A stretch of 64,000 bases of DNA from an uncultured Gemmatimonadota bacterium (lineage in GTDB: Bacteria; JAAXHH01), in the NCBI GenBank assembly GCA_951812955.1, contig OX638340.1, positions 2,496,001 through 2,560,000 on the forward strand, in the 5' to 3' direction. The notes under the pieces are model-generated. The model was not told where the DNA came from, made no database searches, and was given only the letters and a program-made list of their open reading frames with translations. Position 1 is the stretch's first letter; every line of letters begins with the position of its first letter. The position numbers and the translations under genes are program-made. This document shows positions 16,384-50,709 of this stretch, one piece after another.

Positions 16384-18951
16384 TTATCGAAATATAGACA
16401 GACGGGAATTTCCTGTCAAGAGAAAGCCATCCAGCACTTGCCTGGGTGAAGGACCGAGGGGTTCCGGCGGAGCGAAGTTATAAAGATCCCAGGACCGGCC
16501 GTTGGTGCGAATGACGACCGCGCCGCCCAGGTCCGTTCTGTACACTTCCGCTCCCCGCCGCCTGTATCGCTCGATGATCTGGGGCGAGGGGTGTCGGAAG
16601 CGGTTGTACATGCCGGCGGAAACGGCCACGGCCTCCGGGTCGACGGCGTTCAGGAAGGCGAAGCTGCTCGACGTGTTGCTCCCGTGATGGGGCGATTTGA
16701 GCACCGTACTTTTCAGTGTGGACGGCCAACGGCCGGTCGCGGCCTCCGCCCTTTCCTCGATGTCACCGGTCAGCAGCATGCTGAATTTACCGTAGAACAG
16801 GCGCAGGACCACAGACACCTCGTTGGCATGGTTTTTCGCGGCACCGGTCAGGAATAGGGGGTCGGGATGGAGAAATAGGCCGCGCACGTCGCCCAGAGCC
16901 GCCAGGGTGTCTCCCTTTACAACTGTACGGTACGGAATGCCGTGCAGGTCGACGGTCTCCCGCCATGCCCGGTAGGATCCGGACTCCGACGGCACGCCGC
17001 TCGAGACGACCTCGCCCACTTCCACGGACTCCACCACGGCCGAAAGTCCACCGTAGTGGTCCAGGTGTGGGTGGGTTACGATCATCGTATCCACGCGCCG
17101 GTAGCCCCCGGCGCGCAGGAAAGGCACGATGACGCGGGCGCCTGCGTCCCAGGTGGGCGACCTGGGACCGCCGTCGACCAGCAGGGTGCGCCCGTTGGGA
17201 CAGGCAATGAAGATGGCGTCGCCCTGTCCGACGTCGAGGACGGTGATCTCAAGCGACCGTTCGGGCAGCAGGCTGTAGCAGAAGAGCAGGATGGAAAGGG
17301 CCACCAGTCCCAGCCGTGCCCGGCGCTCCCGGGGAGCGCCGGGGTTCCAGAGCAGCAGCAGGCCGGCGGCATAAAACGACGCGAAAAAAAGGCCGGAAGG
17401 CGCCGGTACTTTTACCAGTGCGGTTGGCACGCTGGACAAGAACTTCGAGAGATGGATCATGACAAACAGGACCAGGGCGTTTGCGGCGCTGAACAGACGG
17501 GCTATTTCGAAGAAAAGGGGACCGGTCAGGGCGGTGAGAACGCCGAAGGTCGTATTCAGAAAGACCAGCGGCCCGATAAAGAGATTTGCGACCGCCGACA
17601 TCCAGGAAACCTGGTAGAACGTGCCCGCCACCACGGGCAGCGTGCCCAGCTGCGCCGCGATCGAGACCAGCAACCCGTCCCGCAGCCATCGGGACCACCA
17701 CTTCTCCGACCGGGAAAGCCGTTCGGGCAGCAGCTCTTTCATCCTGGGATAACCCGAGATGATGGCGTAGGTCGCGAGAAAAGAAAGCTGGAAGCTCAGG
17801 TCGAAAAGCGCCGAGGGCCAGATCAGGAGTATGACGACGGCCGCCACGGCCAGGATGTTGACGGTGTCGGTCTGCCGATCCAGCTGACGGCCTGCCAGAA
17901 AGAGCGCCGCCATGATCGTGGCCCGGATGACCGAAGGCGTCAGGTTGGTGATGAAGGCGTACAGCACCAGGACGCCCAGCGTGCCGGCTACGACGATGTG
18001 CCGCGGGAGTCTGAGGACGAAAAGCAGCGTATGGATCACCAGGGTGATCAGGCCGACGTGCAGTCCGGAAACGGCCAGGATATGGGCCAGGCCGATCGTC
18101 TTGAAGGTGTCGAGCAGCTCTTCGGGCAGCTGGCGCCGCGCGCCGAGGAGAATGCCTTTCAGCAGGGCGGCGGAATCACCCCGCATGGTCCGGTCGATTG
18201 ATCGCTCGATGCTGTTTCGGAGCGGGTCTATGACGCCGGTCTGCCAGGTGAACGACCGGTTGCGCCGCGTCACGCGATAGCTTGCGGGATCGCGCACGCT
18301 CACGAGCGCGTGGATTCCCCGGCTCTCGTAGTAGGTGCGCGCGTCGAAGCCGCCGGGATTCCGGGCAGGTTGCGGACGGCGCAGGCGGCCCGAAACGAGG
18401 ACCCGGTCGCCGTACCGGCCGGGGTCGATACCGTTGGTCAGGCGAACCTGAAGGCGTCCCGCTACCGGCGAATTACGGCCAGCCGCGGATTCCGACCCGG
18501 CCCGATCAGCCGGAAACCGTCCGGCGGCCGAAAATCGCCCGGTGGCCGGCGACATGCCACGGGATACCTCTGGAGTCCGCCCGGCAACACCAAGGGAGAT
18601 GGAATCAGCGTCCAGGGTGACGACCGTGAATCGGGATCTGACCTCGGGCGTGCGGACGATCGTGCCCGTCAGGGTGTGGCGCTCCCGCTGGTCGCTGAGT
18701 CGCCGGATGTCGTTAGACGGCACGACCCGCATCTGCGCCGCGTACCAGAAAGCGCCCGCGAACACGAGGCACAGGGCCATGCAGATCCGTGGGGATATAG
18801 CGGCGGGACCACGGGTGCGGTAGAGCACGTAACCGGACGCGATAGCCGCCATAGAACACAGCGCGAAAAGCATCGGAGATACGGCGACGCGATGACCCAG
18901 CAGGATACCGAGTACGTAGCAGACCGCGATGAACAGGGCCGGGCGCCGCAT
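16384..18951 (-). CDS. comEC: DNA internalization-related competence protein ComEC/Rec2.
   Basis: The N-terminal region is polytopic, the central segment is the competence domain, and the C-terminus is a metallo-beta-lactamase (VLDVGQGDAIFIACPNG, MIVTHPHLDHYGGL). It is 855 aa. Confidence 0.85.
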   Translation of the reverse strand: MRRPALFIAVCYVLGILLGHRVAVSPMLFALCSMAAIASGYVLYRTRGPAAISPRICMALCLVFAGAFWYAAQMRVVPSNDIRRLSDQRERHTLTGTIVRTPEVRSRFTVVTLDADSISLGVAGRTPEVSRGMSPATGRFSAAGRFPADRAGSESAAGRNSPVAGRLQVRLTNGIDPGRYGDRVLVSGRLRRPQPARNPGGFDARTYYESRGIHALVSVRDPASYRVTRRNRSFTWQTGVIDPLRNSIERSIDRTMRGDSAALLKGILLGARRQLPEELLDTFKTIGLAHILAVSGLHVGLITLVIHTLLFVLRLPRHIVVAGTLGVLVLYAFITNLTPSVIRATIMAALFLAGRQLDRQTDTVNILAVAAVVILLIWPSALFDLSFQLSFLATYAIISGYPRMKELLPERLSRSEKWWSRWLRDGLLVSIAAQLGTLPVVAGTFYQVSWMSAVANLFIGPLVFLNTTFGVLTALTGPLFFEIARLFSAANALVLFVMIHLSKFLSSVPTALVKVPAPSGLFFASFYAAGLLLLWNPGAPRERRARLGLVALSILLFCYSLLPERSLEITVLDVGQGDAIFIACPNGRTLLVDGGPRSPTWDAGARVIVPFLRAGGYRRVDTMIVTHPHLDHYGGLSAVVESVEVGEVVSSGVPSESGSYRAWRETVDLHGIPYRTVVKGDTLAALGDVRGLFLHPDPLFLTGAAKNHANEVSVVLRLFYGKFSMLLTGDIEERAEAATGRWPSTLKSTVLKSPHHGSNTSSSFAFLNAVDPEAVAVSAGMYNRFRHPSPQIIERYRRRGAEVYRTDLGGAVVIRTNGRSWDLYNFAPPEPLGPSPRQVLDGFLLTGNSRLSIFR

Positions 18952-19076
18952 GAGCTGCTGTTTCTCTCCATAAAGTGAAGGCGGTCGACAGGATGAGAGG
19001 CTGAATCCGGTGATATGGGTTTTCCACCAGGATTACCTGCTTACTAAGCCATTTCGCTCACCGGTTGCGATATCCT

Positions 19077-19769
19077 TTAGTCCCCCACGATCTTCCCGTC
19101 ACGCAGTCGCAGGATCCGGTCGCAGTGCCTGGCGACGTGCTCTTCATGGGTCACCAGCACGATCGTATGTCCGTCCCCGTTCAGGCGATCGAATATCGCC
19201 ATGACCTCCTCCCCGGTCCCGCTGTCCAGGTTTCCGGTGGGTTCGTCCGCCAGAATGATGGACGGTTCGTTGACCAGCGCACGGGCGATGGCCACACGCT
19301 GGCGTTGTCCGCCGGACATCTCGTTGGGCCGGTGGCGGGCCCGGTCGGCGACACCCACCGCGTCCAGGGCCTCCATGGATCGTCGACTCCTTTCCATTCT
19401 GTTCATCCCACGGTAGAGGAGCGGCAATTCCACATTGCGCAGGGCGTCCATTCTCGGAAGCAAGTTGAAAGCCTGGAACACGAACCCGATCTTGCGGTTC
19501 CGGATGAAAGCCTGTTCATCGTCCGAAAGGTCTCCAACCGGTCTGCCGTCAAGTTCGTAGCTGCCCGCCGTCGGCGTATCCAGGCAACCCAGGATGTTCA
19601 TCAGGGTGGATTTCCCGGAACCCGACTGCCCCATCACAGCTACGTACTCACCCCGGTCTATGGTGGCGGAGACGCCCCGGAGCGCGGTAATGCGGTCGCC
19701 TCCCATGGGGAAGGACTTATGCAGGTTTACGATGGAGATAAGGGACGAGGAACGGATGGATCGATGCAC
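19077..19769 (-). CDS. MacB/LolD-type ABC transporter ATP-binding protein (cassette C).
   Basis: It has Walker [10 protein letters not shown], the Q-loop, the signature [15 protein letters not shown], Walker [12 protein letters not shown] and an H-loop. It has a GTG start with AGGAAG 6 nt upstream. Confidence 0.85.
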
Positions 19770-19812
19770 GACGGCTTCCTGTGACCGGGTGTGTGATTCG
19801 GTTCTATACAGG

Positions 19813-19842
19813 TATAGTCGTGGTTAAATGGGAAATCTCGTA
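19813..19842. repeat. Leader motif copy S1 (TATAGTCGTGGTTaaaTGGGAAATCTCGTA), 45-75 nt upstream of the cassette-C ATPase start on the coding strand.
   Basis: The 30-mer is read directly and recurs at 21613-21642 and, with 4 mismatches, at 26475-26504. About 95 bp of extended homology between S1 and S3 (19762-19845 versus 26406-26504) includes the GTGCATC start-codon region. Confidence 0.75.
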
Positions 19843-19991
19843 CGGGTTGCTGAATTGACAGGGTGTTCTCAATACCTGGAGTATGTTGTCAATACAAATG
19901 GTAACCAGTTGGGTTGACGGGACGTTTGCATCTCTATACCATAGTCGTTGCCCCTAATCATGAAATTGCCCCTGACCAAGGAACCAGTGAC

Positions 19992-20597
19992 ATGTCCGCT
20001 CCCGCCTCACGCATGAATGCCCGGCTATTTCTTTACGCAGCTGTCGCAGCCCTCGTCGCATTTAGCATCACCCTCTTCTGGCGCAATTATCAACAAAATC
20101 AAGACCTTCAGATTCTGCAGCATGGGCTATACAACGCCCAGGTAGAAATCCGCGTGCTGCAGGCGACCAATATGTTCGGGGCGCCCTTTATCACCCCCTT
20201 CCCCATGGTCGACCAGCACGGCCAACCTGCTGCATTACCGAATTTCGGTAATGGTCACCTGCTCCTCCTGTTTTTTAATGCGACGCATAGTCCATTTCGC
20301 CTCGACCTGATGTCTACATTTGGGTCGGTGATCGGAGACAATGTCCCGGTTATCGGCATTCTCCAGGCAGAATCGGCCGAGGAGATCTCGCCGATCGTGG
20401 ATCAATTCAGGTACAGCTTTCCGGTGTATCTGGCCGTCGATTCGCCCTTTGATCTGCCGTTTACACCCTACTGCGTGCTGATCGATGGATCCGGCAACGT
20501 GGTACACCTGTCACCCATCGCACCCGTCGGGTCCGCCGATACCCGATCGGTGGAGGCACTTATTTCGGAATTTGCGCAGTTGCTAGAGGGCGGGTAA
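19992..20597 (+). CDS. Hypothetical membrane-anchored protein with a thioredoxin/redoxin-like fold signature that lacks the CxxC motif.
   Basis: It has an N-terminal TM helix (LFLYAAVAALVAFSITLFW). A redoxin-like segment HLLLLFFNATHSPF sits where TlpA/ResA proteins carry WCxxC. This is a low-GC gene. Confidence 0.5.
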   Translation: MSAPASRMNARLFLYAAVAALVAFSITLFWRNYQQNQDLQILQHGLYNAQVEIRVLQATNMFGAPFITPFPMVDQHGQPAALPNFGNGHLLLLFFNATHSPFRLDLMSTFGSVIGDNVPVIGILQAESAEEISPIVDQFRYSFPVYLAVDSPFDLPFTPYCVLIDGSGNVVHLSPIAPVGSADTRSVEALISEFAQLLEGG

Positions 20598-20681
20598 GCC
20601 TTTTGCGCAACCTGGTGTGAAGTATCACCGGGCACCCGAAATGACGAATATGTACAATGTAAAACAAGGAGTAGCCTGATC

Positions 20682-21176
20682 ATGATCACTATTCACAAGG
20701 TGTTAATGGTATTATTGGTCCTGTCTGTAACCGCTTGTGGCGATGATGGTCAACCGAAGCAGGCAGGTCAATCGCAAATGGCTGGCCAACCGGACCAGGT
20801 TGGTCAAACGCCAACGGCAAGCCGACCGGACCCTGTGGCCGACCAGAAAGCTGGTATTTATCGGCCCACTACGGTGGACACGAAAGCTGAGATTGTTTAT
20901 TTTCCCCCTGTTCCCACCGACGTCGTCGATCTCGAATTCGATGGCCTCACAGTGATACAACTCGTTGTTGGTACTAATGGCAATGTAGACACGGCATTCG
21001 TCGAAAGATCGTCAGATCGCGTTTCTGTGGACTCTCTGATGCTGGACGTGGCTAAAAAAATGGTCTGGACGCCGGCAGTACATGACGGTGCCCGGGTAAA
21101 GATGCGAACCTCGATCCCGTTTATGTTCAAGATACCCACTCCAACCCCTGGCGAGGAGACCGTCACCGAGGAATAA
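20682..21176 (+). CDS. Lipoprotein with a C-terminal TonB-C-like domain (cassette C partner).
   Basis: It has a lipoprotein signal (LVLSVTAC). The C-terminal roughly 90 aa fit the TonB C-terminal pattern (P-x-P...VVDLEF...G-V..A-V..SS....LD.AA...V..W.P....G.V....IPF.F). This is a low-GC gene. Confidence 0.68.
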   Translation: MITIHKVLMVLLVLSVTACGDDGQPKQAGQSQMAGQPDQVGQTPTASRPDPVADQKAGIYRPTTVDTKAEIVYFPPVPTDVVDLEFDGLTVIQLVVGTNGNVDTAFVERSSDRVSVDSLMLDVAKKMVWTPAVHDGARVKMRTSIPFMFKIPTPTPGEETVTEE

Positions 21177-21528
21177 GGATCAACGTGAGATACCCCGCAG
21201 ATCGACCGTGAATGCCCTCGTCTTATCAAACCTGCTGTTTCGTTTCGAAGGAGTTACATATCCGGGCGAAGGCCCAAGCAGGCCTTCTATCCGGGAATTA
21301 CGCACGCCCAGGTGCGCAATCCGTTTTTCAATCTACGAAACCCGCTCATCAAGGTGGGCGATACGGTCGCCCAGGCGTATATCGAGTTGAGATATGCGGG
21401 TATCGAGGCTGCGCCAGACAAAGAGCAGGATCCCGATTGCGACGACATTGCTTATGACGTTTGTGGCGTCCACGATCATCTCTTGACTATGTTATTTAAA
21501 AAGTTCCAGCTTCGACATCCTTCGATCT

Positions 21529-21642
21529 ACCTGGTTCTGCCAGAACCGGATTGGCCCGAAACGGCCACGTATTCGCCCCGGTTAATGGTGGCGTATACAC
21601 CCCGCAACGCGGTATAGTCGTGGTTTGGTGGGAAATCTCGTA
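21529..21642 (-). pseudogene. Fragment of an ABC ATPase 5' region (Walker A segment only), directly abutting leader motif copy S2.
   Basis: The reverse-complement frame reads (DFPPNHDYT)ALRGVYATINRGEYVAVSGQSGSG and then terminates. It parallels residues 18-52 of the ATPase at 19077-19769. The motif at 21613-21642 is the same sequence seen upstream of that intact gene. Confidence 0.5.
21613..21642. repeat. Leader motif copy S2.
   Basis: It is identical to S1 except for 3 positions in the central spacer. The upstream 'tataca' homology is also retained, with an 11-bp insertion. Confidence 0.75.
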
Positions 21643-21793
21643 ACAAAAGGCTTTGACAAGGAAAGTGTAAGTGTCGTTCGAATGAAAGAGCATTGTACTG
21701 TGGTCAGGAGGTAATTACTTACCATAGACCCGAACGGCTGAAGCAAATGGTGCTAAGAAACAACCACAATCAGAAGTGTTACTTGCTACTGCC

Positions 21794-24193
21794 TTATTCT
21801 GCTTTGAGTGCATCAGCAGGATTCGCCGTCGCGGCTTTCAGCGCATGGTATCCGACCGTAAACCAAGTGATCGTAAGCGCGGCGAGCCCCGTGAGAATGA
21901 ACATCCACAAACCTATTTCGATACGGTACGGAAAACCTTCCAGCCACCCCTGCATGATGTAGTAACTGATAGGTACGCCAAGAACGAGAGCGATCAGGAT
22001 CAGCCAGGTAAAGTCCTTCGACAACAGCAGGATGACGTTCGAAACCGTCGCACCGACTGCCTTGCGAACGCCGATCTCCCTGGTCCGCTGTTCGGCCATG
22101 TAGGACGCCAGTCCCAACAAGCCCAGACAGGCGATCAGAATGGAAAGCGTCGCTCCGGCGATGAAGACGGACCCCAGCCGTTGTTCGGCGGCGTACTTTT
22201 GCTCGAGATCCTGGTCGAGGAAGTAGAATTCCATGGCGGGATGGTTCGGATAGGTTTCGCGCCACTGGTCCTGCAGTATTTCAAGTCCCTGGGTAAGGCT
22301 CTGGCTGCGCAGCCTGGCTACCATCGTATTGCCACCTTCCCAAAACAGAATCAAAAGCGGTTCAATGCGTTGGTGTAGCGTATGGTAGTGGAAATCCGCC
22401 ATGACGCCGACAACGTGCATTGGAGGATAGTCGGGTGTATGGGTATAGGTAAACGTCTTACCAATCGGGTCTTCCCATCCAAAAGACCTGGCAGCCGTTT
22501 CGTTGATAAGAACTGAGTAGTTGTCCGAAGCGACTGCGCGAGAAAACGTACGTCCCGATATTATCTCGATGCCCATTGTTTCTACGAAGTCGAAACCGGT
22601 CCAGATTGTGGGGATGAGCGGGGTATCCTCCACGATATATCCTTCCGGCTGAATGAAACTGGTAGCAGTTAGTCTGCCGGGCACGCTGGTTGTTGTGCTC
22701 AGGTTTACGATTTCAGGATACTGCATCACCTTGTTCCGGAAGGCCGGGAAACCCTGGACGGTCTCATAATCAGGCAGTCGTATAACTACCACGTGCTCTT
22801 TATCGAATCCCAGTTTCTTGTTTCCGATGTACTCCAGTTGCTCCAGTATAACCAACATTCCGACGATCATGATGATCGAGACGACGAACTGGAAGGTGAT
22901 CAGCGCTTTTCTGATAAGCGACGGTGAAACTCCCGTCTTCAACGCTCCGCTAAGTACGACAGCCGGCCTGAAAGAGGAAAGTACGAGGGCTGGGTATCCT
23001 CCGGCGATAATCCCGGTACAAAGTGCGATGGCCGCCAGGGCCGGCATCAGCCACGTGGATTGATAATCCATCTCCAGTGCCTTTCCCGAAAACCGGCTGA
23101 ACTCGGGCAGGAGCAGGTGTACCAGTGCCAGCGCCACGGCCAGGGCGATGAAGGCGAAGAAAACCGACTCGCCGATGAATTGCCCGATCAACTGGACCCG
23201 CTGGGCGCCCAGCACTTTCCGAATACCGACCTCCTGCGCCCGTCGTGCCGAACGGGCCGTGGATAGGTTCATGAAGTTCACGCAGGCGATCAGCAACATG
23301 AATATAGCCACCGAGGTGAAGATGTAGACATATCGAATGTCGCTGTTCGCTTTTATCTCAAGTTTGAAATTGGAGTGCAGATGGATATCGGTGAGCGGCT
23401 GCAGATAGGGTCTGAATTCCATGCCCAGCGTCTCCAGTCGTTCACCGAGGTGCCTTACCGGAAACTGGGGAAGTTTGTCTTCCAGGTCTTCCGGCGCGTA
23501 TCCCTCTTGAATCAGGAGATAGGTATACAGGGTTCTGTCCATGTTCTGGATCGTGGTCGGCTCGTTGTATATCCCGCTCGCCGAGAGAGTGGAAAACGAA
23601 GCAAGAAAGTCGGCGCGAAAATGCGAGTTCTTTGGCATATCGCGCATGATGCCCGTGACGGTAAACATGTAGATTTCGTCTGCGGAAATCACTTTCCCAA
23701 TCGGGTTCTCATTCCCGAAAATCATCTCCGCCATGGTTTCGGAAACGACAACGGTATGGGGTTTAGTCAGGGCCGTCTGGGGATTGCCCTGAACCAGAGG
23801 GAAGGTGAAAATGTCAAATACGGTTGAATCCGCAAAAATGAAGTATTTCTCCTCATAACTTTTTTCTTCGTAACCAATGAGCCAACTGGAATCCGGCGGC
23901 TTCCACCGGGTGAACTGCTCAATTTCTGGATACTCCTCCTTCAGGACCGGACCCCACGCTGATGGCGTCCTCGCCCATTCGTCCGTTCTGCCTTCCGCGG
24001 TACCAGATACCACTATTCGGTAAATCCGGTCTTTGCGCTCGTGGTGCTGATCGTAACTGAGCTCGTCCTCCACGTAGAGCAGGATCAGAATGCAGGAAGT
24101 CAGACCGATGGCCAGACCCAGGACATTAATCGTGGAATAGCCCCTGTGCCTGAACAGGTGCCTCAAAATGACGGTAACGTAGTTTCTGAACAT
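21794..24193 (-). CDS. MacB-like ABC transporter permease with duplicated FtsX domains and two large extracytoplasmic domains (cassette C).
   Basis: It is 799 aa with an N-terminal TM helix, a large loop, 3 TM, a second large loop and 3 TM. Each half ends with the FtsX-type motif (…ARSARRAQEVGIRKVLGA…, …EQRTREIGVRKAVGAT…). Confidence 0.85.
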   Translation of the reverse strand: MFRNYVTVILRHLFRHRGYSTINVLGLAIGLTSCILILLYVEDELSYDQHHERKDRIYRIVVSGTAEGRTDEWARTPSAWGPVLKEEYPEIEQFTRWKPPDSSWLIGYEEKSYEEKYFIFADSTVFDIFTFPLVQGNPQTALTKPHTVVVSETMAEMIFGNENPIGKVISADEIYMFTVTGIMRDMPKNSHFRADFLASFSTLSASGIYNEPTTIQNMDRTLYTYLLIQEGYAPEDLEDKLPQFPVRHLGERLETLGMEFRPYLQPLTDIHLHSNFKLEIKANSDIRYVYIFTSVAIFMLLIACVNFMNLSTARSARRAQEVGIRKVLGAQRVQLIGQFIGESVFFAFIALAVALALVHLLLPEFSRFSGKALEMDYQSTWLMPALAAIALCTGIIAGGYPALVLSSFRPAVVLSGALKTGVSPSLIRKALITFQFVVSIIMIVGMLVILEQLEYIGNKKLGFDKEHVVVIRLPDYETVQGFPAFRNKVMQYPEIVNLSTTTSVPGRLTATSFIQPEGYIVEDTPLIPTIWTGFDFVETMGIEIISGRTFSRAVASDNYSVLINETAARSFGWEDPIGKTFTYTHTPDYPPMHVVGVMADFHYHTLHQRIEPLLILFWEGGNTMVARLRSQSLTQGLEILQDQWRETYPNHPAMEFYFLDQDLEQKYAAEQRLGSVFIAGATLSILIACLGLLGLASYMAEQRTREIGVRKAVGATVSNVILLLSKDFTWLILIALVLGVPISYYIMQGWLEGFPYRIEIGLWMFILTGLAALTITWFTVGYHALKAATANPADALKAE

Positions 24194-24323: not shown

Positions 24324-26198
24324 TCAACCATGTTCAGAGTCCTTCAGCACTTCAATTTTGGTCTGTCCGCTTTCCGTAGCGATTACGACATCGGTATTCC
24401 CATATTCATAGGTTGTCCCTAACGACATTCTAATGTTATTACTCGACCATGCATTGAGAGGCATCAATTCCTTTACCTCTTCATACTTCAGTACACCGCA
24501 ACGGGTATGCATAACCAAGCTGGTAGTTTTCGCTGCTTTTTCGCTTAACGCCAGTATCAGGTTGCCGGAAACGGTACGGAGGTTGCACCTGCCCCTTCGA
24601 ATACCGTCAGTGTAGCACAGCCGAGTGGTGCCATAGCGGTTGAAAATGGAAACATCTCCATTTAGATCACGTGCATCCAACACAGTACGACCGACTTCCA
24701 TATCCACACCGCCACTGATTGACTCGATCTTTCCTTCCCACTGATCTGGGCGTGCTAACATGTCGTGATCCAAGCTGCTTCCCCCACAGCCGTACATACG
24801 CTGATATACCAATCCGCTTACCTGTCGTATTTTGGAGAACTCGCTGTTGAAAAGATAGACATCTCCTGTGATTCCCTGTATATGGCAGGAATAGCAGGAA
24901 TACATTAAAAGTGAACCTTTCAAACCATCCACATTGACCTTATTGGATCTGAAAACCGACATTCTCATCCCGGCGGGAACCGAAATCGACATATGGCAAT
25001 ACGTGGCATGGCCGAATAGATTCGTTTCGTCGGTACAAACAGCTTCGAAAATATCCTCGACATTGCCTGACACGGTCGCTCTCGGCAATTCTATGGGTCG
25101 TACATTCGAAGTGTGAACAGTGATACGTAGTGATTTCCCCAGACTGTTTCCCACAGGTTTCGGCAGGGGCAGAAATCCGTCGACTTCATGCTTCAAATCT
25201 GGAAACATGTCGACCGTTCTTACACCGCCGACATTATCCTCCAGCACGCGGTCATTAATCAGATCACTTCTCCAGAATTTACTGATTGGCGACGTAGCGG
25301 CTACGTAATCAGATCCATAAGGGTTGCTGGTACCAAGAAACAACGCCCCTTCGTGGGGGCCTGTTTCCAGGTAGTTGGCGACCTGGTCATGAGATATATG
25401 AAAGCCGCTGAGGTTGCTTCGCGATTCTTCTTCCGTCAGACCCAACGCGATCTTCGAACCTTCAACAATAACCTGTTTTCCCTGTGCCTGCTTAATATCG
25501 ACCTCCGTATTCACGCCGCAGTAGAGGACAATGTTTTTCGTGTCTCCCATGTCTATGGTTTCACTGAAATCTTCTCTGGCGATCTTGCAGACCACATCCT
25601 GTACTTCATCGGTCACATCGATCTGGCTCATGGCGATGGTCTCCTTTTCCTGAGGCGACAGTGCTGCTCTCAGCCGGATCCGGGACTGGAATAGCCGTCC
25701 TTTCACCGTCGATTCGGGAATGTCCAGAAACGAGGCGATTTCCTTCAGTGAAAAACCGGTGTAGTAGTACAAATTGACGATCTGGCGATAGTGTTCGGGC
25801 AGTCTCTCGACTTCATCCCAAAGCTCGAGACACTCGAGGTATTCCCGATGGATCTGGTCCGCCAGGGGGAATTCGTCGCGCATATGTTCAGCATCCGGAT
25901 CGACTCGGACCAGACGATCAACCTTCTTCCGACGGCGCGATTCCTTGCATCGGTTGACGACGATTCTGTGAAACCAACTACCGAAAACGGCCGGGTCCTT
26001 CAATTGCGACAACTTGCAGTAAGCGGCAACGAATGCATCCTGTACCACGTCCTCCGCGTCTGTTCGATCCCGAAGGAATCCCAGCGCTACGGCGAAAGCG
26101 GCGTTCTGGTACCGCCGGACCAGCGGCTCGAAGGCGTCGGCGTTTCCCTGCAGGCACTGCAGGATGCTGTAAGTGTCGTCGTGTGTTGTTTTCGCCAT
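24324..26198 (-). CDS. ECF sigma-70 family factor fused to a roughly 430-aa cysteine-rich C-terminal domain with DUF4097/beta-solenoid-like periodicity.
   Basis: The N-terminal 180 aa contain sigma region 2 (DAEDVVQDAFVAAYCKLSQL…FHRIVVNRCKE) and region 4 (YYYTGFSLKEIASFLDIPESTVKGRLFQSRIRLR). No TM helix is evident in the remainder. Strands such as TVSGNLILAL, DVSIFNRYGTTRL and DVVIATESGQTKIEV resemble 'toastrack' repeats. Confidence 0.72.
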   Translation of the reverse strand: MAKTTHDDTYSILQCLQGNADAFEPLVRRYQNAAFAVALGFLRDRTDAEDVVQDAFVAAYCKLSQLKDPAVFGSWFHRIVVNRCKESRRRKKVDRLVRVDPDAEHMRDEFPLADQIHREYLECLELWDEVERLPEHYRQIVNLYYYTGFSLKEIASFLDIPESTVKGRLFQSRIRLRAALSPQEKETIAMSQIDVTDEVQDVVCKIAREDFSETIDMGDTKNIVLYCGVNTEVDIKQAQGKQVIVEGSKIALGLTEEESRSNLSGFHISHDQVANYLETGPHEGALFLGTSNPYGSDYVAATSPISKFWRSDLINDRVLEDNVGGVRTVDMFPDLKHEVDGFLPLPKPVGNSLGKSLRITVHTSNVRPIELPRATVSGNVEDIFEAVCTDETNLFGHATYCHMSISVPAGMRMSVFRSNKVNVDGLKGSLLMYSCYSCHIQGITGDVYLFNSEFSKIRQVSGLVYQRMYGCGGSSLDHDMLARPDQWEGKIESISGGVDMEVGRTVLDARDLNGDVSIFNRYGTTRLCYTDGIRRGRCNLRTVSGNLILALSEKAAKTTSLVMHTRCGVLKYEEVKELMPLNAWSSNNIRMSLGTTYEYGNTDVVIATESGQTKIEVLKDSEHG

Positions 26199-26474
26199 AG
26201 GGTAGTTGTCGTCTTAAGGGTTTCGTACAAAATCAGATAATAAGGAAGCGTTACATAGAATAAGATGACCTTGCGGCCTCAACGGTTAAAAACAAAATCG
26301 TGTATATGGTGGCGGTCAGGTCTCGAAGAGTTGAAATACGGCCTATCCCCTCATGGAATGACCTTTCGAGACCGACAACGCAGATTTTGGGGTCGATTCG
26401 TATCGGTAGGTTCAGATTCAAAAGGATGCACGACTCATGACCGGTATCGGAAGCGTATTCAACTTCCTATCACG

Positions 26475-26504
26475 CATAGTCGTGGTTTGGTGGGCAATTT
26501 CGAA
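26475..26504. repeat. Leader motif copy S3, lying between the two ECF-fusion genes.
   Basis: It reads cATAGTCGTGGTTTGGTGGGcAATtTCGaA. The flanking roughly 65 bp, including the GTGCATC pseudo-start, are homologous to the leader of the ATPase at 19077-19769. Confidence 0.7.
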
Positions 26505-26537
26505 CGTACAGTTACCTGCGGGGTTCGAGACTTAAAC

Positions 26538-28412
26538 TCACTTCATCGCGTCGGGGCCATCTGACAACTCGACTTCGGCGGTGCCACTTTCTGTAAGGAG
26601 CAGATAGTCCGCGTGCGTTGTATCATACGTAGTTCCGGCCGTGATGCGATGCCCGTCGTTATATGTCGAATAGAGCCGCATCACGTCCTTTGCCTGACCC
26701 AATTTCAAGACGCCACAACGCGTATACATCACAACGCTGACCGTCTTTGCGAGTCTTTCATCCAGAACCAGCTTTGCCTCGCCAGAGACGGTCCTGAGGT
26801 TACAACGAGTTCCGGATTCCCGGGATGACTGGTACAAGCGGGTTGTACCGAATCGGTTGTAAATGGATACGTCACCCTCCAGGTCCTGCGCGTCCAGCAC
26901 GAAACGGCCGACATCGATATCCACACTGCCCTTTATATTGGATAGTTTTCCTTCCCACACATCCGTGTTGCGTATCATTCCGTCAAGGTAGCTCGCGGCG
27001 CCGTATTCATACATTCGCTGACAGAACACACCGCCTACTTCATGTATATCCGAAAACATGCTGTTGAACAGGTACACATCCTTCGAGATACCGGTTATCT
27101 GGCAGGAATGGCAGGCATACACCATCAAGGAACCGTTCAATCCCTCCGCGTTGATCCGCTTCGCCTTGAACACCGAAATGTTCTTTCCGGCCGGGACCTC
27201 AATAGAAACATGACAGTACGAGGCCGGTCCGAAAACCTTGGAATCATCGGACCAGTAAACCTGGAAAACATCCTTGATGCTTTCCGTCATGGCGGAGTTC
27301 GGTACATGAATCGGCCGTACTTCCATCGTGTGAACCGAAATCCGTATTGATTTGCTCAAGCTCGCACGCGCCGGTTTTGGCAGCGGAGGAAACGTATCGA
27401 TATCGTCTTTAAGATCCGGGTACAGATCGACCAATCTCACCCCGTTACAAACTTCGTCCAGCATCCAGTCGTTCATCAGATCCCGTCTCCAGTGGTCGCT
27501 GATCCGTTTGGTCATAGCTGCGTTTTCGCCACTGGTTGAATCTACACCGACAAAAAGCTCACCTTCATGGGGACCGGCTTTATAGAAATCATCGACCGTA
27601 TCGTGGGAAACGGCAAATCCGCCAAGGTTGAGGGTTGCCTCTTCTTCGCTAAAACCAAGCGCGATCTTCGAACCTCTCACAACAACCTGTTCTCCTTGCG
27701 CCTGCTTAATCTCAACCTCCGTACTCACGCCGCAATAGAGGACGATGTTCTCTACGTCGCCCATGTCGATCGTTTCTACAAAATCCTCCTTGGCGATCCG
27801 GCAGACAACATCCTGGACCTCTTCGGTTACGTCGATCTGGCTCATGGCAATGGTCTCCTTTTCCTGTGGGGACAACGCCTCTCTCAGCCGGATTCTGGAC
27901 TGATAGAGGCGTCCCCGCGCCGTGGATTGCGGAATGTCCAGAAAGGCAGCGATTTCTTTCAGTGAGAAGCCGGTGTAGTAGTACAACGTGACGACCTGGC
28001 GATAAAGTTCCGGGAGCTGCTCGACTTCATCCCAGATTTCGAGACGCTCGATGTATTTTTGATGGATACGATCCGACATAGCGAATTCATCGCGAGATTC
28101 TCCAGAAACCGTATCGACGCGGACTTGACGACCGATTCTGCTTCGTCGGACCAGCTCCTTGCAACGGTTGACAACGATTCGGTGAAACCAACTGCCGAAA
28201 ACGGCCGGGTCCTTCAACTGCGACAGCTTGCAGTAGGCGGCCACAAAAGCATCCTGTACCACGTCCTCCGCGTCTGTTCGATCCCGAAGGTAACCCAGAG
28301 CCACGGCGAAAGCGGCATTCTGGTACCGCCGGACCAGCGGCTCGAAGGCGTTGGCGTTTCCCTGCAGGCACTGGCGGATGTTATAGGTATCGTCGTGTAT
28401 GAGAGTGGTCAT
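26538..28412 (-). CDS. ECF sigma factor / C-terminal beta-solenoid-like domain fusion protein, tandem paralog of 24324-26198.
   Basis: It is the same length (624 aa) and roughly 65-70 percent identical to its neighbour across both the sigma and C-terminal parts. Confidence 0.72.
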   Translation of the reverse strand: MTTLIHDDTYNIRQCLQGNANAFEPLVRRYQNAAFAVALGYLRDRTDAEDVVQDAFVAAYCKLSQLKDPAVFGSWFHRIVVNRCKELVRRSRIGRQVRVDTVSGESRDEFAMSDRIHQKYIERLEIWDEVEQLPELYRQVVTLYYYTGFSLKEIAAFLDIPQSTARGRLYQSRIRLREALSPQEKETIAMSQIDVTEEVQDVVCRIAKEDFVETIDMGDVENIVLYCGVSTEVEIKQAQGEQVVVRGSKIALGFSEEEATLNLGGFAVSHDTVDDFYKAGPHEGELFVGVDSTSGENAAMTKRISDHWRRDLMNDWMLDEVCNGVRLVDLYPDLKDDIDTFPPLPKPARASLSKSIRISVHTMEVRPIHVPNSAMTESIKDVFQVYWSDDSKVFGPASYCHVSIEVPAGKNISVFKAKRINAEGLNGSLMVYACHSCQITGISKDVYLFNSMFSDIHEVGGVFCQRMYEYGAASYLDGMIRNTDVWEGKLSNIKGSVDIDVGRFVLDAQDLEGDVSIYNRFGTTRLYQSSRESGTRCNLRTVSGEAKLVLDERLAKTVSVVMYTRCGVLKLGQAKDVMRLYSTYNDGHRITAGTTYDTTHADYLLLTESGTAEVELSDGPDAMK

Positions 28413-32888: not shown

Positions 32889-34452
<1,564 letters not shown>

Positions 34453-34536
34453 AGTTATTGAAACTCGAGGTCGACTTGTCCGGCGCACGATGTGCACGCT
34501 GTCATGTTTTTAAAGTTGGGGGGCCTGTAGTACTGG

Positions 34537-34613
<77 letters not shown>

Positions 34614-34623
34614 TTGAAAGCCG

Positions 34624-34696
34624 GGGGATATAGCTCAGCTGGGAGAGCGCCGGCTTTGCAAGCCGGAGGTCACCGGTTCGATCCCGGTTATCTCCA
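34624..34696 (+). tRNA. tRNA-Ala (anticodon TGC) in the 16S-23S spacer; CCA is not encoded.
   Basis: It has the GGGGATA…TATCTCC acceptor stem with the G3:U70 identity pair, the anticodon loop tTTGCAa and TTCGATCCC in the T-arm. It is followed by ctgg. Confidence 0.92.
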
Positions 34697-34800
34697 CTGG
34701 GCACAGCAGACGAGTACAGGTGCCCGCTCTTTGACAATTACATAGGAATGACGGGAACGGCGTTGTAACATCGGAGCACTCAAGCACAGTAGCATTTTTT

Positions 34801-37869
<3,069 letters not shown>

Positions 37870-37921
37870 GCTCCAATTTATGTCGTCGTTCTCTCATTCC
37901 ATGTAATTGCCAACCCATTTC

Positions 37922-38040
37922 TTCCGGTGGCGATAGCGGAGGGGAAACACCTCTTCCCATTCCGAACAGAGTAGTTAAGCCCTCTTGCGCCGATGGTACT
38001 GCTTGGGTGACCTTGTGGGAGAGTAGGACGCTGCCGGGGG
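37922..38040 (+). rRNA. rrf: 5S ribosomal RNA.
   Basis: It contains CCGAACAGAGTAGTTAAGCC…GCGCCGATGGTA…GGGAGAGTAGGACGCTGCC, which aligns with the bacterial 5S consensus. Confidence 0.9.
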
Positions 38041-38084: not shown

Positions 38085-38147
38085 GGGGCTAATGAAAGCT
38101 TTAGATCGCTAGCGTAGTCTGGTTGTCTGGCCAGGTCCGGTCGTCGT

Positions 38148-38822
38148 TTACGCGGCGGTGTTTACAATGCGTCCGTCGAAGAGGCGGATGATCCGGTGGG
38201 CGTGATCGGCCAGAACCTGGTCGTGGGTCACCATGATGATGGTCGTGCCCGCCTCGTTGAGGCCGTTTAGCAGTTCCATGACCTCCGAGCCGTTGGCAGA
38301 ATCCAGGTTACCCGTCGGCTCATCCGCCAGGATCAGCTTGGGATTGCCGATGACCGCCCGCGCCACGGCTACGCGCTGTTGCTGGCCGCCGGAAAGCTGC
38401 TGCGGGAAGTGATTACGCCGGTGGGGGATCTGCATGTGGTCCATCGCCGCATCCACCCGTTCCTTGCGCTCCTGCTTGGACGTGCCCAGGTAGATCAGCG
38501 GAAGCTCGATGTTCTCGTAGACGGTCAGTTCGTCGATCAGGTTGAAGCTCTGGAACACGAAGCCGATGTTGTTCTTGCGCAGATTGGCTCTTTGCCGCTC
38601 GGAGTGGCCGGACACTTCCTGGTCCAGGAAATGGTATTCCCCGCCCGTAGGGTTGTCGAGAAGGCCGAGGATGTTGAGCAAGGTGGACTTGCCGCAACCC
38701 GACGGCCCCATGACCGCCACGAACTCGCCCTGGTCCACGGCCATGCTCACGTCGTTCAACGCCGTCGTCTCCACCTCTTCGGTCGCATAGAGTTTCTGCA
38801 AGTTGCTGGTCGCTATCATCAC
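38148..38822 (-). CDS. MacB/LolD-type ABC ATP-binding protein (cassette A).
   Basis: It has Walker A GPSGCGKST, the signature LSGGQQQRVAVARAV and Walker [12 protein letters not shown]. It is roughly 93 percent identical at the protein level to the ATPase at 45626-46297. Confidence 0.85.
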   Translation of the reverse strand: MMIATSNLQKLYATEEVETTALNDVSMAVDQGEFVAVMGPSGCGKSTLLNILGLLDNPTGGEYHFLDQEVSGHSERQRANLRKNNIGFVFQSFNLIDELTVYENIELPLIYLGTSKQERKERVDAAMDHMQIPHRRNHFPQQLSGGQQQRVAVARAVIGNPKLILADEPTGNLDSANGSEVMELLNGLNEAGTTIIMVTHDQVLADHAHRIIRLFDGRIVNTAA

Positions 38823-39651: not shown

Positions 39652-40540
39652 CTACCGGCCCGTCACTTCGATTCGATTCCGGATGCCACGCGTGTAAGTC
39701 AGATGCCCGCGTCGGTCAATCCAGATCCCTTCGACGTGAGGCAAATCATCCAGTAACCGCTTTGAATTCTCGACTCCCATGACGTACGTCGCAGTCGCCA
39801 GGGCGTCCGCCGTCATGGCGTCCGGGGCGATGACCGTGGCGCTGAGCACGTGGTTCGATGAAACCCCCAGCCGTGGATTGAGAATGTGAGCGATACGAGG
39901 GCCCTGGTGCAGTCTATAGTTCTCATAGTCTCCTGCCTTCGCAATGGCCTCGTCTTCGAGTTCGACCATGGCGCATAGTGCATCCATCCGAGCGGTATGG
40001 TGAACGTATCCCGATGCGCCACAGGCGAGTAAGCTCGAGCCATCACAGGGCAAAGATGTCTCCTCCGGCCGAAACCAGGCCACATCGGACCCGGTGGTCC
40101 CGCAACGCCCCGACCGCCCGATCCACCATCTTGCCGATCTCCCTGATCCCGCCATCGGCTTCGAGGGCGACGAGCAATCGAACGTTGTTGCACACGGGAC
40201 AACGAAGATCCTCCTGTACCTCGTAAACGTACCCTACAGGATCGCCCTGTTCACCGAAAATCACGTAGCGGTCATATTCCCGAAAGTCCTCGTGCTTCCG
40301 GGATTCGGCCATGTGGAACGTAACCGAAACAAACTCCGAAACTGTCGGTTCATCGAGCGGTGGAAACAGGTTGGACATGCCGGCTAGCTCGTTTGACATC
40401 CTGTAAAGCGACGGGTCGGATCCGACTACATCGGTTCCGCCGGATCCCATGAGATAGATGAGATTCACGGCCACGACTACGGTGCCTGCTCCGGCGATCA
40501 ACACCACCGCCATTCGACTACGTTTCAAAAACTGCGCCAT
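39652..40540 (-). pseudogene. Decayed FMN-binding-domain::ApbE fusion, formed by an internal deletion plus a frameshift (two overlapping ORFs, 40043-40540 and 39652-40155).
   Basis: The first ORF begins like the FMN-binding protein at 50779-51396 (TM helix, …EDLRCPVCNNVRLLVALE). It then jumps at 'DGGI' into sequence that aligns with the middle of ApbE at 49708-50709 (GGIAKGYGLDRMAHVLRNRHIRCGLISAGGD versus GGIREIGKMVDRAVGALRDHRVRCGLVSAGGD). That ORF stops after DIFAL. The ApbE C-terminal half (…YENYRLHQGPRIAHILNPRLG…ADALATATYVMG…) continues in another frame. Confidence 0.65.
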
Positions 40541-45503: not shown

Positions 45504-45625
45504 GAAGTGGCATTGACGATTCGCGTTACCGAATCAAGGGGAGTTGCTTTCAAGGTATCCAATAGACCAGGAATCAACAACCGTCTATGCGACGCAGTTC
45601 CACAAGGTATCCCCATAGGTCGCGC

Positions 45626-46297
45626 TTACGCGGCCTCCGTCACGATCCGTCCGTCGAAGAGCCTGATGGTCCGGTGGGCGTGGTCGGCCAGCGCCTGGTC
45701 GTGGGTCACCATGATGATGGTCGTGCCCGCCTCGTTGAGGCCGTTGAGCAGTTCCATCACCTCGGCGCCGTTGGCCGAGTCCAGGTTACCCGTCGGCTCG
45801 TCCGCCAGGATCAGCCTGGGGTTGCCGATGACCGCCCGCGCCACGGCCACGCGCTGCTGCTGGCCGCCGGATAGCTGCTGCGGGAAGTGGTTCCGGCGGT
45901 GGGGGATCTGCATGTGCTCCATCGCCGCGTCCACCCGTTCCTTGCGCTCCTGCTTCGACGTGCCCAGGTAGATCAGCGGCAGTTCGATGTTCTCGTACAC
46001 GGTCAGCTCATCGATCAGGTTGAAGCTCTGGAAGACGAAGCCTATGTTGGCCTTGCGCAGGTTGGCGCGCTGCCGCTCGGAGTGGCCGGACACTTCCTGG
46101 TCCAGGAAATGGTACTCCCCGCCCGATGGATTGTCGAGGAGACCGAGGATGTTGAGCAGGGTGGACTTGCCGCAGCCCGAGGGTCCCATGACCGCCACGA
46201 ACTCGCCTTCGTCCACGGCCATGGTCACATCGTTCAGCGCCGTCGTCTCTACCTCTTCGGTCGCGTAGAGTTTCTTGAGATGTTCTGTCCTGATCAT
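45626..46297 (-). CDS. MacB/LolD-type ABC ATP-binding protein (cassette B), a near-identical paralog of 38148-38822.
   Basis: The motifs are the same. DNA identity to the cassette-A ATPase is high from about codon 10 to the stop and ends abruptly at both gene ends. The gene has backbone-like GC and sits at the edge of low-GC DNA. Confidence 0.85.
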   Translation of the reverse strand: MIRTEHLKKLYATEEVETTALNDVTMAVDEGEFVAVMGPSGCGKSTLLNILGLLDNPSGGEYHFLDQEVSGHSERQRANLRKANIGFVFQSFNLIDELTVYENIELPLIYLGTSKQERKERVDAAMEHMQIPHRRNHFPQQLSGGQQQRVAVARAVIGNPRLILADEPTGNLDSANGAEVMELLNGLNEAGTTIIMVTHDQALADHAHRTIRLFDGRIVTEAA

Positions 46298-49707: not shown

Positions 49708-50709
49708 TTAATTGACAATCTGCAATCTATTCTGGATCCCTCTTGTAAAAATAAACTGTCCATGCTGATCAATCCAGATCCCCTCGACGTATGGCATATC
49801 GTTCAGCAATCTCTGAGAACTTTCGATACCCATAACATAAGTCGCTGTGGCAAGCGCATCCGCTATCATTGCGTCGGGAGCGATAATCGTGGCGCTATGC
49901 ACGTGATCCGTCGAAGTCCCAAGTCGAGGATTGAGTATGTGTGTAATACGGCGACCTTGATTGATTTTGTAGTTTTCATAACCACCCGACGTCGCAACCG
50001 CCTCATCTTCGATTTCGACTGTGGCGCACAATGTATTGGGATGGTATGGAGACCGGATACCAATACGCCAAAGACGTTCAGGTTCTGGCCTTCCCATGGC
50101 AAGAACATCCCCACCTGCAGATATCAACCCGCATCTAATGTGGCGGTTTCGTAATACGTGAGCCATTCGATCCAATCCGTAACCTTTTGCTATTCCGCCA
50201 AAGTCTACCCCATAACCAGACGAAGCAATTCGTACTTTCTGTTCTTGCACTTGCAACTGATTAAAGTCTACCAGTTCGAGCATTTGCCGTAAGCTTCGAC
50301 TTGACGGATCACAATTATAAAATCCCCAGTGGTACATAATCGGTAGAATTGTCACATCGAAGGCACCATCTGTAATCTCGCCGATTCGTCTTGCTGTAGT
50401 CGCGACCTTGATAAAGTGGGGTGTTACGCCATGCCAAAGCCCATACATGTTGTTTACATGCGTAAGTTCACTGGTATTACGATAGAGGCTTAGCAGGCTG
50501 TCAATTTGAGCTAAAGCATCGAAGGCATCATAAATTGATTCTTTACTGTACTCGCATTCCTTGATTACAAGTTCTACTTTCGTCCCCATATGAATCTGAT
50601 GACGACGAACAAGCCTTTGCTTGTCTGACAATCCTGCGCCAAAATTGTATGGCACAAGTAACATTGCCGATGAAAGGCCGACCGATTTTATGAAATTGCG
50701 TCGCTTCAT
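49708..50709 (-). CDS. apbE: FAD:protein FMN transferase ApbE (flavin transferase), with a Tat/lipoprotein-type signal.
   Basis: It has an N-terminal MKRRNFIKSVGLSSAML signal. The ApbE family blocks are present (HMGTKVELVI…, GAFDVTI…, VDFGGIAKGYGLD, ISAGGDV, ATSGGYENY, PRLG, ADALATATYVMG). It is 333 aa. Confidence 0.85.
   Translation of the reverse strand: MKRRNFIKSVGLSSAMLLVPYNFGAGLSDKQRLVRRHQIHMGTKVELVIKECEYSKESIYDAFDALAQIDSLLSLYRNTSELTHVNNMYGLWHGVTPHFIKVATTARRIGEITDGAFDVTILPIMYHWGFYNCDPSSRSLRQMLELVDFNQLQVQEQKVRIASSGYGVDFGGIAKGYGLDRMAHVLRNRHIRCGLISAGGDVLAMGRPEPERLWRIGIRSPYHPNTLCATVEIEDEAVATSGGYENYKINQGRRITHILNPRLGTSTDHVHSATIIAPDAMIADALATATYVMGIESSQRLLNDMPYVEGIWIDQHGQFIFTRGIQNRLQIVN

Follow-up and report, generated by a model that had tools for sequence, protein, structure and literature searches.

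A decayed ATPase fragment beside an ADOP-like permease gene in an uncultured Gemmatimonadota bacterium: probable remnant of a duplicated leader-ATPase unit

Introduction

A 64,000-nucleotide stretch of contig OX638340.1 from an uncultured Gemmatimonadota bacterium (assembly GCA_951812955.1; hereafter the window, whose own numbering is used throughout) contains a permease gene, permease C, that is followed by what appears to be only the 5' end of an ABC transporter ATPase gene, and the intact gene, ATPase C, lies beyond two genes on the opposite strand. How did this arrangement arise, and has a transporter operon been broken by it? An earlier note on this DNA described the layout correctly, as open reading frames (ORFs), repeat search and profile matching agree, and proposed that an insertion or inversion had split an ancestral permease-ATPase operon. 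The analysis reported here leads to another answer. The sequence at 21529-21660 is very probably a pseudogene stub, the rest of a second unit consisting of leader, ATPase and the small gene sp1, which lies in direct orientation across a thioredoxin-like/TonB_C module (the X module) from the intact leader-ATPase-ComEC genes. The stub is of an ordinary kind, in a locus prone to duplication and recombination, and a single insertion is too recent and too simple an event to account for its history. The features concerned are as follows.

21794-24193, minus strand: permease C, an intact 799-amino-acid duplicated ABC permease of MacB/FtsX type (ADOP-like; Pfam, NCBIfam)
21611-21690, minus strand: leader' with its upstream flank, a copy of the promoter/5'UTR-like (untranslated) region upstream of the ATPase (32-nucleotide repeat, nhmmer)
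21529-21614, minus strand: ATPase 5' stub, codons ~27-57 only (repeat search, nhmmer, alignment)
21232-21479, minus strand: sp1', a decayed copy of the small transmembrane/coiled-coil gene that follows the ATPase in relatives (nucleotide identity to S1 of locus L001)
20682-21176, plus strand: lipoprotein with a TonB_C domain, second half of the X module (Pfam TonB_C, E = 1.2e-6; TIGR01352)
19992-20597, plus strand: membrane-anchored thioredoxin-like (Trx-like) protein without CxxC, first half of the X module (homologues; the ORF opens at 19914)
19770-19865, minus strand: leader L, a conserved non-coding region upstream of the intact ATPase (cross-genome conservation)
19077-19769, minus strand: ATPase C, intact, 230 amino acids, a MacB/LolD-type nucleotide-binding domain (NBD; Pfam ABC_tran, NCBIfam)
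18976-19026, minus strand: remnant of the small gene S2, first ~22 codons (colinearity with L001)
16384-18951, minus strand: ComEC, the conserved downstream neighbour of the ATPase (Pfam Competence, DUF4131 and Lactamase_B)

Identity of the ATPase fragment

The fragment falls within a 39-codon ORF (21527-21646, minus strand) with a product ending ...TALRGVYATINRGEYVAVSGQSGSGRTR at the stop codon. This ORF matches residues 27-57 of the intact ATPase, with 75% nucleotide identity over 83 nucleotides, and it resembles ATPase C, not ATPase A or B elsewhere in the window. The 32-nucleotide leader sequences at 21611-21642 and 19811-19842 are 91% identical, a value that none of 100 shuffles reached. 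A DNA profile of the leader and ATPase 5' end, built from six genomes and run with nhmmer, matches 21614-21532 (E = 2.6e-16), and the match to leader' spans 21657-21611; leader' proper occupies 21611-21660 in the window. The 114-bp element of the earlier note is a true ATPase 5' fragment and no conserved small gene.

In the window the leader is joined straight to codon ~27. Everything between, namely the remaining 5' UTR, the start codon and codons 1-26, was lost in a 125-nucleotide deletion at a TACC microhomology. The Walker A motif reads GQSGSGRTR and then a stop, its lysine having gone through the loss of ~12 nucleotides, and the stub contains no start codon, ribosome-binding site, signature motif or Walker B. 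The set of features expected of a functional NBD (PF00005; complete Walker A, Q-loop, LSGGQ, Walker B, H-loop and a start codon) is thus incomplete at 21529-21614 and present at 19077-19769, where the product is of MacB/LolD type. ATPase C matches ABC_tran with E = 1.7e-33 over profile positions 1-136 of 137, VTHE is visible in the translation, and its top NCBIfam matches are the MacB and LolD NBDs.

The stub was then compared with related loci, numbered here with the prefix L. Loci L005-L007 are three independent ENA assemblies from different samples, ~95% identical to the window in nucleotide sequence; L009 is more distant (84% amino acid identity in the ATPase, 80% in ComEC); L001 belongs to a metagenome-assembled genome from the Latescibacterota; and L013 is one of two loci returned by a metagenome scan with the Trx-like alignment. 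The upstream flank of leader', TTCGAACGACA, is common to the window, L001 and L013, and the 42-nucleotide spacer 3' of the stub is common to the window and L013. The truncation junction ACCAGGTAR is present in the window (ACCAGGTAG) and in L009 (ACCAGGTAA, also given as CTGATGACCAGGTAA). Since the ComEC proteins of these two are only 80% identical, the truncation is old, and a recent event is not supported.

The disabling lesions are specific to lineages. The 125-nucleotide 5' deletion and the loss of the Walker A lysine are found in the window and L005-L007, and the latter three have an extra 10-nucleotide deletion immediately 3' of the stub. L013 has a nonsense codon (TAC>TAA), and the start codon of L009 is mutated (GTG>GTA). 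There is no trace of the stub in L008 and only a decayed relic in L012. With its homology to a functional gene, its truncation, and further damage that is not the same in every lineage, the stub qualifies as a pseudogene. A comparison of the window and L009 stubs over 24 codons gives nonsynonymous and synonymous divergences (pN and pS) of 0.156 and 0.43 (pN/pS = 0.36). Over the same codons in the full genes pN is 0.02, so that the stub is eight-fold relaxed relative to them, although its ratio is still below 1 (P = 0.03); constraint on it is strongly relaxed.

The small gene downstream of the fragment

In L001, the ATPase is followed by two small genes, S1 and S2, ahead of ComEC. The window is colinear with this locus in an informative way: the leader and ATPase of L001 correspond to 19862-19080, codons 28-54 correspond also to 21612-21532, S1 corresponds to 21482-21232, and the start of S2 corresponds to 19026-18976. 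The copy of S1 in the window, sp1' (83.7% nucleotide identity to L001 S1), therefore lies behind the stub, ahead of the TonB_C gene; the earlier note did not mention it. S1 is absent 3' of the intact ATPase, and S2 is cut to ~22 codons ahead of ComEC. Because sp1' directly follows the stub, the repeated unit comprised leader, ATPase and sp1, and was more than an ATPase 5' end. This is difficult to reconcile with a simple split of an operon: the duplication took in the entire leader-ATPase-sp1 unit, of which one copy then decayed. The absence of S1 after the intact ATPase in the close relatives of the window is due to an independent deletion between the start regions of S1 and S2, and the same deletion is found in L008. 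In Pfam searches, the small S1, S2 and sp1' proteins matched nothing beyond coiled-coil entries, and these below threshold.

It might be supposed that the stub is functional, either as a promoter/5' region or coupled upstream ORF driving sp1', or as a conserved small gene. In favour of this, the window, L005 and L013 show good conservation of leader' and of the flank upstream of it; L013 and L009 have an intact sp1', which lies 13-57 nucleotides beyond the stub stop codon; and the stubs have diverged with a bias to synonymous substitutions (P = 0.03). In the window, however, sp1' has a TAG nonsense codon at 21333-21335, where relatives carry CAG or GAG, and a frameshifted C-terminus. Relative to L005 it has accumulated nine nonsynonymous and two synonymous codon changes (for contrast, ComEC has 48 and 87, respectively). 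It is dead in the window. The stub itself has no start codon or ribosome-binding site in the window, its start is mutated in L009 and it is interrupted by a stop in L013, quite apart from the further deletion in L005-L007 and its loss or decay in L008 and L012. A function for the stub is accordingly very unlikely, and the conserved small gene at 21529-21642 in relatives that would have spoken against the earlier note's fragment was not found.

Locus layout in related genomes

Was a contiguous permease-ATPase operon ever present? The gene orders below, in which sigma stands for genes encoding extracytoplasmic function (ECF) sigma factor fusions, bear directly on this question.

L001: sigma2 - sigma1 - permease - leader - ATPase - S1 - S2 - ComEC, without Trx-like and TonB_C genes
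L005-L007: the window layout, reproduced exactly
L009: sigma - leader' - stub codons 1-60 (GTG>GTA) - sp1' - TonB_C - Trx-like - leader - ATPase - S1 - S2 - ComEC
L013: sigma1 - permease - complete leader - stub codons 1-57 (TAC>TAA) - 42-nucleotide spacer - intact sp1' - fused Trx-TonB_C - leader - ATPase
L017: sigma - X - leader - stub - sigma - X - leader - ATPase
L008, L012, L017, L020, L021 and L022: Trx-TonB_C divergent from leader-ATPase-ComEC, with no permease between

By ComEC and ATPase, L008 and L012 are the closest relatives of the window (94-98% amino acid identity), and L017 and L020-L022 are more distant. Three loci with permeases 64-69% identical to permease C (L002-L004) have unrelated surroundings and are uninformative for the history of the locus. 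ATPase identities define three groups, namely the window with L005, L008 and L012; L009; and L001 with L017, which are 96% identical; L020 and L021 are grouped with L001 and L017 by leader type. The X module divergently adjoins leader-ATPase-ComEC in L005-L007, L008, L009, L012, L013, L017 and L020-L022, and thus in each of the three ATPase groups, including L017, the sister of L001. L001 is the sole exception.

One relative, then, does show the uninterrupted order of the ancestral operon that the earlier note proposed, but the X-bearing state is widespread and L001 is nested among X-bearing relatives. An ancestral L001-like operon split by two foreign low-GC genes, with the ATPase 5' end duplicated as a by-product, nevertheless deserves consideration. 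L001 has permease, a 141-nucleotide spacer that includes the leader, ATPase, S1, S2 and ComEC, and lacks both genes; the Trx-like and TonB_C genes (GC 0.52-0.54) are lower in GC than the ATPase (0.62); and a single-crossover insertion of X-leader-ATPase-S1 into an L001-like locus formally yields the observed direct repeats. Against it stands the adjacency of X to leader-ATPase-ComEC in every other related locus, L017 and the permease-less L020-L022 included; the available loci already point to the L001 type as nested within X-bearing lineages. The low GC is not peculiar to the two genes: it is common to the permease (0.53) and to the whole of 19.8-31 kb, and it is conserved in L001. The truncation junction is shared with L009, and distant relatives hold Trx-like, TonB_C and MacB-type permease genes in one operon. 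Finally, the L001 spacer is chimeric, its left part being the flank of the window stub (TTCGAACGACA) and the remainder, from ~25 nucleotides upstream of the leader, the leader type of its own group. On account of this chimeric spacer, L001 looks recombinant rather than ancestral, with X removed or bypassed by an exchange at the leader. Splitting of an L001-like operon is on balance improbable.

Inversion is not supported either: the stub repeats the full gene in direct orientation, and X is divergent from the ATPase in every genome that has it. The inverted repeats suggested for 19850-19990 and 21180-21530 amount to chance matches of 6-8 nucleotides. Between the direct repeats there are only the Trx-like and TonB_C genes, with no transposase or integrase and no flanking inverted repeats to indicate a mobile element. 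Unlike a short target-site duplication, the repeats are long, diverged and carry gene content. A foreign origin inferred from low GC was also dropped as a candidate, given the low GC of the permease and the entire 19.8-31 kb and the same step in L001, as was an insertion of X-leader-ATPase into the S1-S2 spacer, given that the close relatives of the window lost S1 in a separate deletion and that X-leader-ATPase is widespread.

The abrupt change in GC at ~19.8 kb, a fall from ~0.64 to ~0.52 that coincides exactly with the ATPase 5' end, raises the further concern of mis-assembly or a chimeric join at conserved ATPase sequence, and paralogous ATPases in the window might be thought to promote this. 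It is scarcely credible, however, that three independent assemblies would repeat the layout base-for-base at ~95% identity. L013 and L009 share the logic of the layout, L001 shows the same GC step, and the repeats (32-83 nucleotides, 75-91% identical) are too short and diverged to mislead an assembler. The presence of the same pattern in L001 also means that the GC mosaic is old.

Origin of the stub

The duplicated unit spanned from ~60 nucleotides upstream of the leader through the spacer after sp1. One old deletion took ATPase codons ~58 to the end, its junction being common to the window lineage and L009 and the spacer downstream of it to L013. The duplicate may have come from a tandem duplication of X-leader-ATPase-sp1, after which the extra X and the ATPase interior would have been lost. 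The same structure would result if a homologous fragment had integrated by a single crossover, and the two mechanisms are indistinguishable here. L017 has the structure expected from a tandem duplication of a shorter segment, ending inside the ATPase. Once duplicated, the leader and ATPase 5' end could have been reused as a homology anchor for recombination and gene conversion, a role that would explain a second stub upstream of a sigma gene (described below), the alternative haplotypes seen in close relatives and the 'uninterrupted' L001 locus.

Several points weigh against this account. The comparison genomes are all metagenome assemblies, with about a dozen loci in total. The polarity rests on species-tree parsimony, which is weak in a strongly recombining clade, and the permease-leader-ATPase-S1-S2-ComEC order of L001 could be the ancestral state, with X-leader-ATPase inserted later. 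The differences between the window and L009 stubs include fewer nonsynonymous changes than a neutral sequence should have (8 of 17, against ~12 expected; binomial P = 0.03), which points to residual constraint, later gene conversion or a truncation younger than the shared junction implies. This deficit is attributed here to gene conversion from functional copies. Over 74 nucleotides the stubs are about equally far (74-81%) from all full copies, so that no donor can be named.

With these points taken into account, the pseudogene remnant of a second leader-ATPase-sp1 unit is retained as the preferred explanation. A broader possibility, tentative and rather doubtful, is that the conserved ~95-nucleotide leader and the first ~60 ATPase codons act as a recurrent 'landing pad' for duplicating, swapping and deleting a set of envelope modules (ECF sigma fusions, ADOP permease and Trx-like/TonB_C), the swaps taking place between strains and species. 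If so, each event would leave a dated ATPase 5' stub, and the pads would stay alike through gene conversion; the serial expansion of the locus could be read from its stubs; and the leader could be a regulatory element, as yet undescribed, that is recruited to drive every new module.

The intact ATPase and its leader

The earlier note's expectation that a functional-looking ATPase with its own leader had been preserved is borne out. ATPase C is intact and under purifying selection (dN/dS about 0.15 or lower), with amino acid identities of 84% to L001 and L009 and 96-99.6% to L005, L008 and L012. In the leader upstream of it, 51 of 76 columns are invariant across ten genomes (the window, L001, L008, L009, L012, L013, L017 and L020-L022). 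The 76-nucleotide core is 87-92% identical to L001 and L009, at a distance where 39-45% of ATPase synonymous sites differ. Because the leader core is better conserved than these sites, the ATPase appears to have a conserved control region to itself, including where the permease lies immediately ahead of it.

The nature of this region was explored further. An Rfam search of 18900-21900 (E <= 1) gave no match for the leader, and a scan for sigma-70 promoters and terminators was at background level. A structured leader RNA was considered and set aside: in the predicted start-region hairpin (CACGAC / GUCGUG) all but one pair are invariant, with z = -1.15, and the divergent L022 contributes one compensatory and two disruptive changes, leaving the structure unsupported.

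ATPase and ComEC are linked in every related locus that reaches that far. The 2-kb separation of permease and ATPase probably costs nothing; the intact ATPase, with its own conserved leader, would serve the permease in trans, the usual situation for 'orphan' permeases of ADOP type, and no function would have been lost.

A second stub and recombination at the locus

The profile of leader and ATPase 5' end also detects a second, older stub, which is found in L005 and L008 as well.

26301-26507, minus strand: leader'' and ATPase codons ~1-38, upstream of the sigma-fusion gene 24324-26198 (nhmmer E = 9.6e-12)

Its translated remnant, RISTLRDLTATI, matches the intact ATPase, and the 56-amino-acid ORF at 26251-26421 is a translation of this second relic and no gene. 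By the same profile, further stubs are confined to expanded loci (the window, L005, L008, L012 and L017), and the simple loci L020-L022 have none.

From 19579 to 21174, a block that covers TonB_C, Trx-like, leader and ATPase codons 1-64, the window differs from L005 at 2 of 1596 sites, where 82 would be expected from the flanks (P = 1e-32); identity is 99.9% in this block and ~95% in the flanks. ComEC, by contrast, is 99-100% identical to that of L008 over 16384-18480, and the X module is only 70-90% identical to the L008 version. Since its ComEC is L008-like and its X block L005-like, the window is a recombination mosaic, and X is in circulation as two alternative haplotypes, one split and one fused. 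Exchange has also occurred within a locus: in L013, ~190 nucleotides of the stub copy, made up of the leader and codons 1-26, match that genome's own full copy at 100%, and the next 90 nucleotides differ at ~12 sites.

The permease

Permease C contains two tandem MacB_PCD + FtsX modules in one polypeptide, each domain being matched twice in Pfam, and its orthologues in L001 and L013 are 85% and 89% identical in amino acid sequence. The best NCBIfam match is to TIGR03434 (ADOP), end to end (residues 9-799 against 8-803 of 803), with a score of 286.6 bits that falls below the curated cut-off of 622.3 and so outside ADOP membership. In the description of TIGR03434, 'orphan' means that such a permease gene usually has no ATPase gene beside it. 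From these matches, permease C resembles an ADOP/MacB-type permease without being a curated family member. The ADOP name denotes duplicated 'orphan' permeases first seen in acidobacterial genomes, whose members form clusters of paralogues (PMC3914696).

All three of the L005-L007 assemblies break at or near one point inside the permease (L005 8470-8569 and the ends of L006 and L007, equivalent to ~23127-23177 of the window), with an N gap in L005 and ~80 nucleotides of unrelated sequence in L005 and L006. This suggests that a repeated element, possibly an insertion sequence, is inserted in the permease gene of the L005-L007 sister strain.

The thioredoxin-like and TonB_C genes

The Trx-like gene, whose database start is the ATG at 19992, diverges from the ATPase in every genome that has X; an exact look-up of the ORF taken from a TTG start was without match. 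Among its homologues (n = 45), distant members keep WHCASC and match AhpC-TSA; the window protein has THSPFR at this position, and close relatives also lack CxxC. In most relatives the Trx-like and TonB_C parts are fused in one ~347-amino-acid protein. They are two genes in the window, L005-L007 and L009, and there the TonB_C part carries its own lipoprotein signal (...LSVTAC).

In distant relatives (L015 and L016, 6001-11220; L018 and L019, 6001-12055), a Trx-like gene with CxxC, one or more small protein genes, DUF7790, TonB_C and a MacB-type permease gene follow one another on the same strand. Because these relatives encode them in one cluster, the Trx-like and TonB_C proteins are likely to be partners of MacB-type permeases and no intruders.

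A block upstream of X (~19885-19925 of the window, plus strand) is conserved in the window, L008, L009, L012 and L017. It reads GG(G/T)AACCAGTT..GTTGACGGGACGTTTGCAT on the strand of X, or GGAAC-N17-CGTT, which by the general ECF consensus presumably represents a putative ECF-sigma promoter. Such a motif looks compatible with the ECF sigma-fusion genes nearby.

Neighbouring genes and cassettes

The window has two paralogous genes on the minus strand (24324-26198 and 26538-28412) for 624-amino-acid proteins, ~60% identical to each other, in which an N-terminal ECF sigma factor (regions 2 and 4) is fused to a C-terminal part of ~440 amino acids that has no Pfam match. ECF sigma fusions recur in every related locus. 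At a larger scale, blocks of ~0.45-0.53 GC (19.8-31 kb and 46-55.5 kb) are set in a ~0.63 background, beside an rRNA operon at 32890-38039.

The earlier note contrasted cassette C with two other permease-ATPase cassettes, A and B, in which the ATPase was said to follow the permease. Cassette B is indeed contiguous, but ATPase A is also ~1.8 kb from its permease. ATPases A and B (38139-38797 and 45618-46275) are 90% identical in nucleotide sequence, their permeases only ~64-65%. Between permease A and ATPase A there are relics of genes for ApbE and an FMN-binding protein, intact copies of which lie upstream of cassette B (39716-40086 against 49769-50135, and 40161-40297 against 51005-51141). 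Because these relics separate its permease and ATPase, cassette A is a decayed segmental duplicate and is not contiguous.

Implications

For annotation, relic is the proper label for the 114-bp ORF, for sp1' and for the ORF at 26251-26421, and permease C should not be called ATPase-less, nor the operon 'broken'. More generally, neither a GC step nor an opposite-strand gene pair is evidence of a recent insertion. The locus provides a worked example, in an uncultured lineage, of how duplication, microhomology deletion, gene conversion and inter-strain recombination remodel a transporter/ECF-sigma neighbourhood, and the conserved non-coding leader upstream of the ATPase-ComEC unit is flagged as worthy of experimental study.

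Comparison with known systems

Permease C is similar to ADOP/MacB-type (type VII) systems in its duplicated MacB_PCD + FtsX architecture over the full length and in the separate ATPase C, which is nearest to the MacB/LolD NBDs. It differs from ADOP in its score, which is under the curated cut-off, and in its setting, an ECF-sigma-fusion and Trx-like/TonB_C neighbourhood.

The topology of the locus, with a 5' stub, an inserted segment and a complete gene with its own promoter, is identical to that produced by Campbell-type single-crossover integration. Here, however, there is no integrase, att-like core, plasmid gene or phage gene, and the 'insert' consists of conserved resident genes, so that the likeness is one of outcome only. 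The tract of identity between stub and full copy in L013 resembles concerted evolution, or gene conversion, between paralogous repeats; the window differs in having no visible conversion tract, its stub and full copy being 75% identical in the coding part.

The closest parallel is the decay of bacterial pseudogenes after segmental or tandem duplication. As in such cases, the leader, ATPase 5' end and sp1 form colinear direct repeats, one copy has been truncated by microhomology deletions, the lesions are lineage-specific, and constraint on the stub and sp1' is relaxed. The remnant described here is nevertheless unusually old for bacteria, with a junction common to lineages at ~80% ComEC identity; gene conversion has renewed part of it, and the locus holds several stubs of this gene, of which it is one.

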